Positions 1,695-7,243 of a stretch of DNA of 32,265 bases are shown here, piece by piece (position 1 is the stretch's first letter; every line of letters starts with the position of its first letter). The translations under genes and the position numbers were made by a program. The notes below the pieces were generated by a model that had not been told where the DNA came from, searched no databases, and worked only from the letters and a program-made list of their open reading frames with translations. The DNA comes from a virus (lineage: Duplodnaviria > Heunggongvirae > Uroviricota > Caudoviricetes), in IMG/VR virus record IMGVR_UViG_2651869694_000010; one strand, given 5' to 3'.

Positions 1695-2447
1695 ATGAAC
1701 CTTGAAGCCTTACCAAAATATTACTCCCCAAAATCTCCAAAATTGAGTGATGCCGCACCGGCGACAGGCTCAGGTGGTTTAACGATTACGGATGTGATGG
1801 CTGCGCAGGGGATGGTGCAGTCGAAAGCACCGCTTGGGTTTGCCTTATTCCTGGCAAAAGCTGGCGTTCAGGATCCTCAGTTTGCGATTGAAGGTCTGCT
1901 CAATTACGCGATGGCACTGGATAACCCGACATTGAACAAATTGAGTGAAGAAATCCGGTTACAGATCATCCCTTACCTTGTGAGTTTTGCCTTTGCTGAT
2001 TATTCCAGGTCTGCGGCAAGTAAGGCTCGCTGTGAGCCTTGTGCTGGTACTGGATTTCATAATGTATTGCGCGAAGTGGTGAAATACTCCAGAAGCGGGG
2101 AGTCTGTTATCAAGGAAGAGTGGGGGAAGGAACTATGTCAGCATTGTCATGGTAAGGGAGAAGTCAGCACAGCGTGCAGAGGGTGTAAGGGTAAAGGTAT
2201 TGTCCTGGATGAAAAAAGGACCCGGCTTCATGGCGCGCCTGTTTATAAGATTTGTGGGCGTTGCAATGGAAACCGGTTTAGTCGTTTACCAACGACACTG
2301 GCGCGGTGTCATGTCCAGAAGCTGGTACCAGACCTGACTGATTATCAGTGGTACAAAGGATATGCAGATGTCATTGATAAACTGGTTACAAAGTGCTGGC
2401 AGGAAGAAGCATATGCTGAGGTGCAATTAAGAAAAGTGACGAGATAA
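1695..2447 (+). CDS. quuQ: late-gene antitermination protein Q
   Basis: ATG at 1695 preceded by GGAGAA; N-terminus MNLEALPKYYSPKSPKLSD and Cys-rich zinc-binding region (CEPCAGTG, CQHCHGKG, CRGCKGKG, CGRCNG) match my recollection of Qin QuuQ/phage-82-type Q proteins. Sits immediately upstream of the lysis region. Confidence 0.75.
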   Translation: MNLEALPKYYSPKSPKLSDAAPATGSGGLTITDVMAAQGMVQSKAPLGFALFLAKAGVQDPQFAIEGLLNYAMALDNPTLNKLSEEIRLQIIPYLVSFAFADYSRSAASKARCEPCAGTGFHNVLREVVKYSRSGESVIKEEWGKELCQHCHGKGEVSTACRGCKGKGIVLDEKRTRLHGAPVYKICGRCNGNRFSRLPTTLARCHVQKLVPDLTDYQWYKGYADVIDKLVTKCWQEEAYAEVQLRKVTR

Positions 2448-2478
2448 ATGATTTTCGCCGAAGATGGCGACGTAATGC

Positions 2479-2507
2479 TTGCATTTTTCAAAAAATATGG
2501 ATAAAAT
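2479..2507 (+). promoter_or_regulatory. candidate late promoter pR' (sigma70-like)
   Basis: TTGCAT (2479-2484), 17-nt spacer, TAAAAT (2502-2507), located 30-60 nt downstream of the Q stop, where lambdoid pR'/qut elements lie. Confidence 0.4.
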
Positions 2508-2552
2508 TTTTTCAACGATGGGCTTTATATACCCGACGTTAAGAAAAAGTAG

Positions 2553-2580
2553 AAAACCCGCTGATGAGCGGGTTTTTGTG
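2553..2580 (+). terminator. intrinsic terminator (tR'-like) downstream of candidate pR'
   Basis: Stem ACCCGC (2556-2561), loop TGATGA, stem GCGGGT (2568-2573), followed by a T-run; an A-run upstream could make it bidirectional. Confidence 0.6.
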
Positions 2581-2862
2581 CTTTAAATAGGGTAATAGAG
2601 ATGTTGAATCTCATTCCGGGATTCATGTTTGTTTACTTATTATTTATCGGGTGACTTTGCCTGATGTTTAAAATGTTTTCTTCCAGTACTATGTCCCTAG
2701 ATACAATGAGTCTGCATATTACATTATTAGCAGAGCTATTACGGTCAAAGTACAGCATAAGCTTTTAAAGCCAATCAACCAGTCATCAAGACAGACGGGG
2801 TTATTCATGAAAACTCTCCATGTTTGATTCGATGGGGCCTGAAATTAAAGCTTTAATATAGC

Positions 2863-3075
2863 TCATGAAAGGTAAACATTGGCAGCTGAAGGGCCACGCA
2901 GACCATTTATCCGGCAAAATTCCACGCGTAATCCGGTGGTAATTTCTTCTGCATCGCGGAGATTGAGCGCTGAAACATGAAGCTGGACATCGATACGACC
3001 ATCGGATGGGGTGATAAGACCCTTGCCGCTTTTGCCGTCAAAGGTTTTGACAATTCCTGTCATTTTACGGGACAA
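2863..3075 (-). CDS. cspF: cold-shock protein family member (CspF/CspH-like)
   Basis: 70-aa CspA-family sequence [26 protein letters not shown]...[10 protein letters not shown]; same position and orientation relative to Q as cspF in Qin. Confidence 0.8.
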
Positions 3076-3239
3076 AAAAATTCCTTAATACTGATAACTG
3101 GGCGCACTATACACACGTTCCTGAAGAAAGCTATAGTTTTTTGATGGGGTTGAAGATGGCTGGATGTCTAAAATAAACATTGCTTCATATGTTCAACTAT
3201 GCGTTAATGATTGCGTCGGTTTGAAGAACAGACGATATA

Positions 3240-3375
3240 CGAAGTAGTTTACTAAAGCAGTTCTCATTTCAGGTGTTATTCACTTATTCCTTCTTTGAGT
3301 CTCTCCAATTAAGTACGAAGTCGTTTCTGTTATACAAGCCATTTATGCCGAAAGGCTCAAGTTAAGGAATGTAGA
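3240..3375 (+). promoter_or_regulatory. cspB-type 5' leader with cold-shock-gene upstream motif
   Basis: GCCGAAAGGC (3347-3356) about 20 nt upstream of the start codon resembles the conserved element in cspA-family 5' UTRs; boundaries are approximate. Confidence 0.3.
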
Positions 3376-3591
3376 ATGTCAAATAAAATGACTGGTTTAG
3401 TAAAATGGTTTAACGCTGATAAAGGTTTTGGCTTTATTTCTCCTGTTGATGGTAGTAAAGATGTGTTTGTGCATTTTTCTGCGATTCAGAATGATAATTT
3501 TCGAACCTTATTTGAAGGTCAAAAGGTTACCTTCTCTGTAGAGAGTGGTGCTAAAGGTCCTGCAGCAGCAAATGTCATAATTACTGATTAA
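3376..3591 (+). CDS. cspB: cold-shock protein CspB-like
   Basis: [23 protein letters not shown]...VHFSAIQ...[11 protein letters not shown] carries the RNP1/RNP2-like motifs of CspA-family proteins. Confidence 0.85.
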
Positions 3592-3872
3592 AATTCATAG
3601 TTTGTCTGTATACGATAACGAAGAAGGCTGATGCCTGAGTGGAGATACAGACAGAGTGGTGAATATTGGATCTCTTTAATAAATAGTAAGGAGGTCCAAT
3701 ACATGAAACAATGGCCAGCATATTTGGCAATAACTTAATCAGGAAAAGTATGCTAACCATTGTGGTGAAGTGCAGGTTTGCTGCATGAATAGTTTTACAG
3801 CAGAAGCTAACTGCTGGCATAGCAAAACAAAGTGCGTAAGTGGATGACTCCCACAAAAAGTACCACAATATT

Positions 3873-3897
3873 AAACCCGCTCAGGCGGGTTTTTTAT
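3873..3897. terminator. bidirectional intrinsic terminator between cspB (+) and a zinc-ribbon gene (-)
   Basis: AACCCGC (3874-3880), loop TCAG, GCGGGTT (3885-3891), flanked by an A-rich tract upstream and a T-run downstream. Confidence 0.5.
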
Positions 3898-3954
3898 TAT
3901 CTGCTTTAAATATGTTATTAAAATATAAAAAATACTTGTTACGAATAAAATCAA

Positions 3955-4343: not shown

Positions 4344-4559
4344 ATGAAATCAATGGATAAGTTAACAACAGGTATCGCCTATGGCACATCGGCTGGTAAT
4401 GCTGGTTTCTGGGCATTGCAGTTACTCGATAAAGTAACTCCGTCACAGTGGGCTGCAATCGGTGTGCTGGGTAGTCTGGTTTTTGGCCTGCTGACGTATC
4501 TGACAAACCTTTATTTCAAGATTAAAGAAGACAGGCGTAAGGTTGCGAGAAGAGAGTAA
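4344..4559 (+). CDS. S: class II holin (phage 21 S-type pinholin) with dual-start motif
   Basis: [71 protein letters not shown] matches my recollection of phage 21 S and EssD/EssQ; Met1-Lys-Ser-Met4 gives the antiholin/holin alternative starts. Confidence 0.9.
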
Positions 4560-4563
4560 TCCA

Positions 4564-5115
4564 ATGACACAAGACTATGAACTGGTTGTGAAAGGAGTCC
4601 GCAATTTTGAGAATAAAGTGGCGGTAACTGTAGCCTTACGGGACAAAAAACGCTTTGACGGTGAAATTTTTGACCTGGACATCTCGCTGGACCGTGTTGA
4701 AGGTGCCGCGCTTGAGTTTTATGAGGCAGCAGCGAGAAGGAGCATCAGACAGGTCTTCCTGGATGTTGCTGCCGGGTTATGTGTAGGGGATGAGCAGTCG
4801 CCGGAAAAGCGCCCCATAATTTTAGAGGCGCAGAATGTGTGGATAACCTACAAAGGAAAGCTACCGGGAAGAATTACTGGTTCTCTGAAGACGCCACCGA
4901 CGGCATTGCGGTCAGAAAAAGATGATATTGAATCGCCCATTGAAAAACTGGAGGGCAGCGTCGCTGATCTGAATAAAAAATTGTCGGTGCTGATCCCTTC
5001 TGAAGATGAAAAAAAACGCCGCGATGAGCAGTTTGCGGCGTTTTACGATTATTGCATTGAAGTTACTCGCAGGAATTTTGTGAAGATTTTTGAAGAGGGT
5101 AAATCTCTTCAGTAA
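4564..5115 (+). CDS. ydfR: YdfR/DUF1327-like protein of unknown function inside the lysis cassette
   Basis: ATG at 4564 just after the holin stop; N-terminus MTQDYELVVKGVRNFENKVAVTVAL matches my recollection of K-12 YdfR. No transmembrane segment is evident. Confidence 0.5.
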   Translation: MTQDYELVVKGVRNFENKVAVTVALRDKKRFDGEIFDLDISLDRVEGAALEFYEAAARRSIRQVFLDVAAGLCVGDEQSPEKRPIILEAQNVWITYKGKLPGRITGSLKTPPTALRSEKDDIESPIEKLEGSVADLNKKLSVLIPSEDEKKRRDEQFAAFYDYCIEVTRRNFVKIFEEGKSLQ

Positions 5116-5436: not shown

Positions 5437-6464
<1,028 letters not shown>

Positions 6465-6824
6465 ATTAATATTAAATCGGATTATTTTTAGCGCTGAATG
6501 TGAAATTTAAATAAAAAGGACTCTTCCATGAGTCAAAATCCTTGAAATCTTAAGGGTAAGATAAAAGGTCATTAGACAGAATGACACGTTTTATTAATAA
6601 ATAAAGCTATTGTTTCATTCGTGTGTTTTTCTTTACAAAAGTAATCCTTGCTATGGTTGGTTAATCATGCGTTAATGGTGTTCTGGTTTGTTACAAAATT
6701 ATCTGAAGCAGTCATTGTTATAATTTTATTATTTGTACCTCTTGAGATTTCCTTGTTGGTTTTTCTCTCTGATATTTTTTTTCGGACCATTCTGCCCAAG
6801 GGCTAACTTCTTCAAAAGGTAATA

Positions 6825-7040
6825 ATGATGTCTAACAAAATGACTGGTTTAGTGAAATGGTTTAACCCTGAAAAAGGTTTTGGTTTCATCACGCCGAAAG
6901 ATGGTAGCAAAGATGTGTTTGTCCATTTCTCAGTTATTCAGAGCAACGATTTCAAAACGTTAACTGAGAATCAGGAAGTCGAATTTGGTATTGAGAACGG
7001 ACCTAAAGGCCCCGCGGCTGTTCATGTAGTGGCACTTTGA
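6825..7040 (+). CDS. cspI: cold-shock protein CspI-like
   Basis: [36 protein letters not shown]... is a CspA-family sequence, located after Rz as cspI is in Qin. Confidence 0.8.
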
Positions 7041-7243
7041 GGTAGAAAATATTACAAACCATATTCACTTTAGATGCCCGTGTTGCCATGGTTCTCAGTA
7101 TAGAACATCATCTTTTGATGTTTCTGACAGGAATCCTTTCGGGGCAAAATGTATCTTTTGTAAATCAATGATGATTACATTTGATAATATTTCACAATAC
7201 TTAAATGTTAGCCGTCTGTCGTTAGATTTAAGAAAGTGAAAAT

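Follow-up and report, generated by a model that had tools for sequence, protein, structure and literature searches.

We found that positions 2479-2577 of the window, by which we mean the whole 32,265-nt stretch of viral DNA analyzed here, very probably form a λ-type late-gene switch, in which a promoter, a pause site, and a terminator lie directly 3′ of gene Q. The sequence elements stand in the register of λ pR′ behind a gene of the Q-λ family, they are conserved, the terminator shows compensatory change, and the late genes follow in the same orientation. The cassette is the regulatory module of a lambdoid phage, Escherichia phage 2H10, with which the window is 100% identical across the cassette region, and the same module is present in the Qin prophage of E. 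coli K-12. As judged from its sequence, it appears to be an unannotated example of a textbook system, and its compact leader appears to be a common variant of the λ type. The promoter and the pause element were annotated in none of the records compared, 2H10, K-12 Qin, SfV, and Ayreon included; the homologous hairpin is annotated as a rho-independent terminator in the SfV record and as a terminator in the Ayreon record. The transcription start, the pause, the binding of Q in the promoter spacer, and the Q-dependent read-through would be expected from the close homology to λ. A literature search on quuQ/ydfT-type cassettes gave no published transcription start site (TSS), 3′ end, Q assay, or antitermination study, and a search for Qin TSS and 3′-end coordinates in the supplements of published 3′-end and TSS maps gave no match. 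When the Qin cassette was computed on NC_000913.3, its TSS was placed at 1,642,422 (− strand) and its 3′ end at about 1,642,360.

The promoter consists of the −35 hexamer TTGCAT (2479-2484), a 17-nt spacer (2485-2501), and the −10 hexamer TAAAAT (2502-2507), all on the + strand, and a 6-nt gap (TTTTTC, 2508-2513) separates it from the nine-base sequence AACGATGGG. When it was compared with λ pR′ (λ 43800-45600 served as the comparison sequence), the two aligned without gaps and in the same register (−35, 17 nt, −10, 6 nt, and an identical AACGATGGG). The λ promoter reads TTGACT, spacer TATTGAATAAAATTGGG, TAAATT, TGACTC, and AACGATGGG, and the window promoter reads TTGCAT, spacer TTTTCAAAAAATATGGA, TAAAAT, TTTTTC, and AACGATGGG. 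The first-pass annotation had reported TTGCAT, 17 nt, and TAAAAT, followed by a hairpin after Q, and all of these are present where it placed them. The distance of about 45 nt that it gave between the −10 hexamer and the hairpin is exactly 45 nt by count (2508-2552), and the start that it expected near 2515 is predicted at 2514 from the λ alignment. Its reading of the region as a pR′-type late promoter with an early terminator directly after Q is borne out by the λ register, the Q family, and the conservation, and the logic of Q antitermination in lambdoid late control is consistent with the Q family, the pR′ homology, and the conserved terminator. The promoter is weaker than the "near-consensus" described there, because the −35 hexamer matches TTGACA at only three of six positions (TTG).

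A generic promoter scanner did not include the TTGCAT/TAAAAT promoter among its calls, and its promoter-like matches in this AT-rich region were at chance level (9 found, 10.0 expected from shuffles). The composite pattern TTGCAT-N17-TAAAAT-N6-AACGATGGG occurs as a single copy in the window and in none of 100 shuffles even when three mismatches were allowed. The promoter is thus regarded as non-random because the composite pattern is unique, because the fold of the RNA is far from random, and above all because of homology and conservation. To define the conserved footprint, 80 viral contigs with a Q at least 95% identical to that of the window were collapsed to 46 distinct versions of the region. 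The −35 hexamer (each position kept in 42-46 of the 46), the whole spacer, T1, A2, and T6 of the −10 hexamer, A1, A2, A5, and T6 of the pause element, and the following GGG were invariant or nearly so. Among these, the −10 bases, the pause-element bases, and GGG showed no change, and the spacer was nearly invariant. The 6-nt discriminator, the middle of the −10 hexamer, and the linker from +28 to +39 vary freely, positions 3-5 of the −10 hexamer giving TAAGAT, TAGGAT, or TAAAGT in relatives.

The terminator tR′ was identified by scan, fold, and conservation as an intrinsic terminator with a 10-bp hairpin on the + strand at 2553-2576 (+40 to +63). It has a GC core (2557-2562 paired with 2567-2572), A-T pairs that lengthen the stem, the loop GATG (2563-2566), and a T-run (2573-2577), which places the predicted 3′ end of the RNA near +64. 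The U-tract is short, with five U in the window and four in K-12. For the predicted RNA of 69 nt, the folding energy is −25.3 kcal/mol (z = −5.0), a stability reached by none of 200 shuffles. In 30 of 33 distinct variants, the hairpin starts between +38 and +43, and the RNA or T-run ends between +63 and +65. Among the hairpins recovered, 20 different strings occur, and these vary in core, loop, and stem extent. When 14 distinct hairpins were aligned on their loops, four core stem levels were canonical in all 14, and the core stems include re-sequenced stems as well as a series from C-G through U·G to U-A. Loop-centered and complement-search counts were used for the terminator and the 5′ helix, since column covariation in a MAFFT alignment misregisters one hairpin class and cannot align partners at variable distance. 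These data show that the sequence of the terminator hairpin changes while pairing stays at +40 to +64, that is, pairing is maintained by compensatory change. A hairpin-like block at 2455-2470, just after the Q stop codon, is shared with λ; its pairing is lost in relatives, and we do not claim it as a structure.

From these parts, and by analogy with λ 6S RNA, we predict that transcription without Q gives a short leader RNA, terminated after about 64 nt (2514-2577, + strand). Short late RNAs are known from phages 21, φ80, 82, and P22 and as StxS, besides λ 6S RNA (PMC7547250). It is conceivable that the ~64-nt RNA itself is the main selected product, a constitutive prophage sRNA like StxS, a reading that we consider unlikely. 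Short pR′-tR′ RNAs do accumulate in several lambdoid lysogens, and StxS functions as an sRNA bound by Hfq (PMC7547250). The predicted leader combines a stem-loop at its 5′ end with a single-stranded, A-rich linker (UAAGAAAAAGUAGAAAA) and the terminator hairpin, and of 5,426 complete E. coli genomes, 1,855 retain the element, which is also present in the cryptic Qin prophage. However, conservation across relatives is lowest in the single-stranded linker, which thus offers no conserved seed, the U-tail has only four or five U, and no Rfam family matches. In a search of 2300-2900 against Rfam 15, nothing reached the gathering score; the best match scored 25.6 bits where 55 are required, and isrK scored 12.7 where 50 are required. 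Weak matches to Rfam "leader" families at the cassette reflect only a hairpin plus a U-run, and the gathering-level matches in the window are cspA thermoregulators only, which lie outside the cassette. An sRNA role does not exclude the function of the cassette as a switch. A leader peptide was also considered. The ORF in question has 22 codons, from an ATG at +5 to 2586, is not conserved, and stops after two codons in λ; the SfV-type version of this ORF runs on in a different frame context, and a coding role was rejected.

The scanner had placed the hairpin on the − strand, and in this lineage the hairpin is bidirectional, with an A-run on its 5′ side and a T-run on its 3′ side. The hairpin might therefore serve mainly as a bidirectional terminator of convergent units, early-right/Q on the + strand and cspF (ynfS as the K-12 counterpart) on the − strand, in which case the promoter hexamers would be fortuitous. 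The call on the − strand, the A-run together with the T-rich tail, and the convergence of cspF (ynfS in K-12) on the hairpin agree with such a role; the antisense cspF-like gene lies downstream of tR′ at 2863-3075 (− strand). Nevertheless, the distance between the hairpin and AACGATGGG is unchanged in phages that lack cspF (SfV and Stx2c phages), the upstream A-run is unconserved outside the Qin-type lineage, and both the promoter and the pause element show conservation as well as homology to λ pR′. It is quite improbable that termination of convergent units is the main role of the hairpin. A secondary terminator role on the − strand in this lineage is possible and is compatible with the late-gene switch.

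The homology between phages stops a few bases past the T-run, indicating that Q, pR′, and tR′ travel as a module with exchangeable cargo. Roughly one in three complete E. coli genomes has the element (the count given above), K-12 included, and the late promoter, pause element, and tR′ can now be placed for these genomes as well as for 2H10 and the Qin prophage. In a second sample of 80 contigs, with a Q ~100% identical to λ Q, the leader behind the same promoter is of the long 6S type or belongs to one of two compact types, which end at about +55 to +60. A wider scan, with one genome per species, recovered Q-λ relatives of 37-95% identity in Enterobacter, Kosakonia, Mangrovibacter, Phytobacter, Atlantibacter, Buttiauxella, Scandinavium, Pectobacterium, Edwardsiella, and others. 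Nearly all of them have a −10 hexamer, about 6 nt, (T/C)AACGATGGG, and then a hairpin with a T-run, and several distant relatives have leaders of only ~52 nt. Since compact and long leaders share the Q and promoter type, leader length is a free variable in λ-type cassettes (~52 to 194 nt). The sequence AACGATGGG emerges as a signature of the whole family of Q-λ cassettes. It also emerges as a joint at which Q/promoter modules recombine with leader/cargo modules; in one contig (L032), a window-type Q and promoter are joined to the λ 6S leader exactly at AACGATGGG.

The signature comprises the pause element AACGAT (+1 to +6) and GGG (+7 to +9) at 2514-2522 (+ strand), and all nine bases are those of λ pR′. 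By homology to λ, the transcription start (+1) is predicted at 2514, and the λ geometry predicts a promoter-proximal pause at +16/+17 (2529-2530, + strand). The T at +17 is kept in 45 of the 46 variants, and the G at +18 and the G at +8 are kept in most. The bases at +8, +17, and +18 fit what we take to be the G−10 Y−1 G+1 pattern of the elemental pause. In λ pR′, GGG at +7-9 lies directly 3′ of the −10-like σ70-dependent pause element, and the elemental pause sequence is an essential part of the pause (PMC5001585). Phage 82 pR′ has its pause element 9 bp downstream of the λ position, GCC at +15-17, and its pause at +25 (PMC5001585). The corresponding stretch of the window, +9 to +17 (GCTTTATAT), contained neither a conserved −10-like hexamer nor a GC-rich triplet of the 82 kind. 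TATATA at +13-18 was considered as an 82-style pause element and rejected; it has no T at the key position 6, and the hexamer is unconserved, with GTATGT in most relatives. The geometry of the window is thus that of λ, because AACGAT and GGG lie at +1 to +9 and not at about +9 to +17.

Gene Q (1695-2447, + strand) encodes an antiterminator of 250 amino acids, which Pfam and PDB matches assign to the Q-λ family. The three Q families are assigned in Pfam as Q-λ PF03589, Q82 PF06323, and Q21 PF06530 (PMC9388147). Q of the window matched PF03589 with E = 1.2e-52 (176 bits; cut-off, 26.7), and the Pfam search gave no match to PF06323 or PF06530; a match to DnaJ_CXXCXGXG was below threshold. It also matched the λ Q structures 7UBM (7ubm_Q, E = 1.4e-36), 4MO1, and 7UBJ. 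The identity is 93% to K-12 QuuQ/YdfT, 96% to SfV Q, and 42% to λ Q. A phage-82-type cassette, with a Q82-family protein, a pause element ~9 bp deeper in the transcript, and pausing at +25, is most improbable and is refuted at the level of both protein family and element geometry: the short distance between promoter and terminator, on which the first-pass annotation had called the arrangement "phage-82-like rather than lambda-like", is the sole point in its favor, whereas Q belongs to PF03589 and not PF06323, the pause element and GGG are placed as in λ, TATATA has neither T6 nor conservation, and compact leaders also stand behind a Q practically identical to λ Q and are thus no trait of 82, so that the family assignment is corrected to λ type.

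A putative Q-binding element, TTCAAAAAATATGG (2487-2500, + strand), lies inside the spacer, where λ has TTGAATAAAATTGG; for its location we rely in part on what we take to be the position of the λ site. The spacer is identical to the λ spacer at 11 of 17 positions and to that of the commonest λ-type variant at 12 of 17. Its ends, TTCA and TGG, are conserved and read TT(C/G)A...TGG when λ is included, position 2489 being C in the window and G in λ, and TTC(A/G)(A/G)AAA...TGG is retained behind Q relatives of 63-72% identity. The Q-binding element of λ is a 13-bp site with contacts at positions 1-4 and 11-13 (PMC9388147). By analogy, the conserved spacer ends would fit a 13-bp Q site that is contacted at both ends.

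Two features of the Q-loading region differ from λ. In λ pR′, a −35-like TTGACT lies between the −10 hexamer and the pause element, whereas the window has TTTTTT at the equivalent positions. Relatives have TTTCCC, TCTCCT, and similar sequences there, the hexamer is absent in all QuuQ-type relatives, and TTGACT beside the pause element is confined to the λ-proper promoter class. This TTGACT is presumably the λ segment that is bound by the repositioned σ region 4. During Q loading in λ, σ region 4 moves to the DNA between the −10 hexamer and the pause element (PMC9388147). The TTGACT docking site is a feature of λ pR′ and is not necessarily family-defining. The second feature is that the zinc-ribbon arm of the window Q begins with an insertion of 47 amino acids, which contains two further CxxC motifs. 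The arm of λ Q contacts positions 11-13 of the Q-binding element and σ region 4, and the N-terminal segment of λ Q refolds into the RNA-exit nozzle (PMC9388147). The N-terminal ~60 residues of the window Q are well conserved with λ Q. Since the contacting arm carries the 47-residue insertion, details of Q loading may differ from those in λ.

The transcript is predicted to begin with a stem-loop (2514-2540, + strand), which was obtained from the minimum free energy (MFE) fold, an RNAalifold consensus, and covariation across leader classes. Its stem is formed by AACG (2514-2517) with CGTT (2537-2540) and by TGGG (2519-2522) with CCCG (2532-2535). The MFE fold of every leader class opens with a helix in which AACG(A) from +1 is paired with a downstream (U)CGUU. 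An exact complement of +1 to +4 was found within +12 to +40 in 20 of 22 genuine non-redundant leader classes, and two further classes pair through a U·G wobble. The partner may start at any position between +16 and +30, and the sequence between the two arms shows no relationship from one class to the next. In three classes, a variant pause element has a matching partner: AACAA/TTGTT in Pectobacterium, AATGA/TCATT in Yokenella, and AAGAATG/CATTCTT in two contigs with λ Q. By chance, an exact 5-mer complement is expected in a 29-nt window in ~2.4% of cases. A shuffle test in which G·U pairs were allowed gave a weak signal (combined p ~0.007, from sequences that are not independent). Among near-identical prophages, rare variants change the 5′ helix without compensation, and the leader classes are not fully independent. 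The helix was not mentioned in the literature searched; older papers could still describe it. It cannot join in the pause, since no more than 16-17 nt of RNA have been made when polymerase pauses. One may speculate that it stabilizes the late mRNA and the short leader or acts outside the Q nozzle.

As a tentative proposal, which we hold to be possible and somewhat less probable than its contrary, the 5′ stem-loop that covaries across the family may be a selected RNA structure superimposed on the pause element, and the QuuQ-type cassettes may in addition represent a variant of Q loading, with a doubled zinc-ribbon arm and no hexamer for σ region 4. Both would extend the textbook system, and neither would change the overall picture.

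Downstream of tR′ and the cspF-like gene, a cspB-like gene has a 5′ UTR of the cspA thermoregulator type (Rfam match at 3215-3654) and lies between tR′ and a second strong intrinsic terminator. This second terminator follows the cspB moron at 3873-3900 (+ strand) and has eight pairs, five of them GC, and the tail TTTATTATCT; an antisense ynfU-like gene (− strand) comes after it. The late genes, identified by Pfam and the 2H10 annotation, then begin on the + strand with the holin (4344-4559) and continue with a DUF1327 ORF (4543-5115), a lysozyme (5437-5970), and an Rz-like spanin (5967-6464). As judged from ORF orientation and from terminase and portal matches, terminase, portal, head, and tail genes follow the spanin on the same strand. 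Because the late genes are ~1.8 kb away and lie past the second terminator, processive antitermination from 2514 would be needed to reach them.

In the λ-type switch that we propose, σ70 RNA polymerase would initiate at about 2514 from TTGCAT-17-TAAAAT. The σ region 2 would then re-bind the −10-like AACGAT at +1 to +6, aided by GGG at +7-9, and polymerase would pause at about +16/+17. Without Q, polymerase would escape, run into the terminator hairpin with its U-tract (+40 to +64), and free the ~64-nt RNA. With Q present, Q would bind its site in the promoter spacer and load onto the paused complex, and the modified polymerase is expected to resist both tR′ and the terminator at 3873-3900. Read-through would then cross the cold-shock-gene morons into the genes for holin, lysozyme, spanin, terminase, and the structural proteins.

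Several known systems resemble this arrangement to different degrees. StxS is likewise a short RNA that arises in lysogens by termination just past a constitutive late promoter. There, a 258-nt pR′-tR′ unit is cut by RNase E to 74 nt, and the associated Q has 144 amino acids (PMC7547250); no sequence relationship was found between StxS and the leader of the window. Phages 82 and 21 share the logic of a constitutive promoter, a σ-dependent proximal pause, a nearby terminator, and the loading of Q at the pause, whereas their Q proteins (PF06323 and PF06530, respectively) are unrelated to the Q of the window. Q21 binds a direct-repeat site as a dimer (PMC9388147, PMC5001585). Copies of the SfV type are much closer and differ in the sequence of the hairpin and in the cargo past the T-run. 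The Qin prophage of K-12 is 94% identical to the window from promoter to terminator and shares the arrangement ydfU, quuQ/ydfT, ynfS, cspF, cspB, ynfU, essQ, and rrrQ; Qin is defective, and its T-run has four T instead of five. Phage λ has a Q of the same family (PF03589), an intrinsic terminator before the late genes, and a 5′ leader helix that uses AACG(A). In contrast to the window, with its leader of ~64 nt and its −35 TTGCAT, λ has a leader of 194 nt, its terminator ending at about +193/194 in the sequence compared, and the −35 TTGACT. In the window, ~1.8 kb of cold-shock-gene morons and the second terminator separate tR′ from the holin gene, which sets it apart from λ.

The transcript of the window is predicted to begin with a 5'-terminal stem-loop (2514-2540), in which the AACGA of the pause element, starting at +1, pairs with (U)CGUU further 3'. 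The same type of 5' stem-loop is predicted in lambda (L002, 788-810) and in the compared sequences L182 (2094-2117), L193 (1903-1922), L155, and L161; in the last two, a T-rich stretch, TTCAGTTTTT, lies directly 3' of the 5' helix, about 30-45 nt past AAGAATG. An exact complement of the start of the pause element was present in 20 of the 22 non-redundant classes of Q-lambda-type leaders, and the site at which this partner begins varied from +16 to +30 among these classes. Three classes have variant pause elements with matching variant partners: AACAA with TTGTT, AATGA with TCATT, and AAGAATG with CATTCTT. The last pair forms the 5' helix of L155 and L161, two contigs with a Q 100% identical to that of lambda. 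In these contigs the 5' stem-loop itself may serve to terminate an extremely short leader.

Between the -10 element and the pause element, lambda pR' carries the -35-like hexamer TTGACT, whereas the window has TTTTTT (2507-2512). TTGACT was found at this place only in the lambda-proper promoter class, and T/C-rich hexamers replace it in all QuuQ-type relatives. Just 3' of the Q stop codon, the block TCGCC GAAGAT GGCGA (2455-2470) was aligned to TTGCC ACGGAT GGCAA of lambda (L002, 720-735), and the alignment has the look of a 5-bp hairpin in which a change in one arm is compensated in the other. Since this pairing is not kept in closer relatives, the block may represent only residual homology around the conserved GATGGC.

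The viral contig L032 (IMGVR_UViG_2565956633_000004) contains, at about 3280-3420, a natural hybrid of a QuuQ-type Q and promoter fused to a lambda 6S-type leader. Because the junction coincides exactly with the shared AACGATGGG, it is suggested that this invariant 9-mer is a recombination joint between modules. Four contigs (L012, L019, L022, and L023) carry two copies of the element, at 3250-3400 and 4890-5090, separated by 1.6 kb of inserted DNA. The first copy, 3' of a full-length Q, is decayed (-10 AAAGAG, pause element AATGATGAG, and a weakened hairpin); the second follows a remnant Q 3' end, and its promoter, pause element, and terminator are all intact. Lambda Q was also encoded in genome contigs (L194-L212 and L224) from assemblies with labels such as Oceanobacillus, Shewanella, Bradyrhizobium, Pseudomonas, Kitasatospora, and Segatella. 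These contigs are often ~48.5 kb, or tiny with low coverage, and most likely represent contamination by lambda control DNA.

In the Qin-type lineage, an A-run precedes the tR' hairpin (window 2553-2576), which therefore also reads as a minus-strand terminator with the tail CTACTTTTTC, facing the convergent cspF unit (with its ynfS counterpart in K-12). A strong plus-strand intrinsic terminator at 3873-3900, made up of AAACCCGCTCAGGCGGGTTT and a T-rich tail, lies 3' of a cspB-like gene and is a second barrier for Q-modified polymerase ahead of the holin gene. Inside the late operon, two cold-shock-protein genes are preceded by 5' UTRs that match the cspA thermoregulator of Rfam (RF01766), at 3215-3654 (156 bits) and 6670-7086 (115 bits). 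A third csp gene, at 2863-3075, lies antisense to the late transcript. The csp genes and thermoregulators are morons between tR' and the late genes. Distant Q-lambda relatives from E. coli ECMA0423 and Entomohabitans have tRNA genes (Met-CAT, Arg-TCT) directly 3' of a compact tR' (L186, 2167-2420; L215, 2150-2226), a placement like that in Stx phages.

The Q of the window contains a 47-aa insertion relative to lambda Q (residues ~116-162, window 2040-2180). It is located in the arm that in lambda Q touches sigma region 4 as well as the QBE (PMC9388147), and adds two CxxC(x)G motifs. The resulting four motifs resemble a two-zinc DnaJ-type domain, and the same insertion is present in K-12 QuuQ and SfV Q, whereas lambda Q lacks it.
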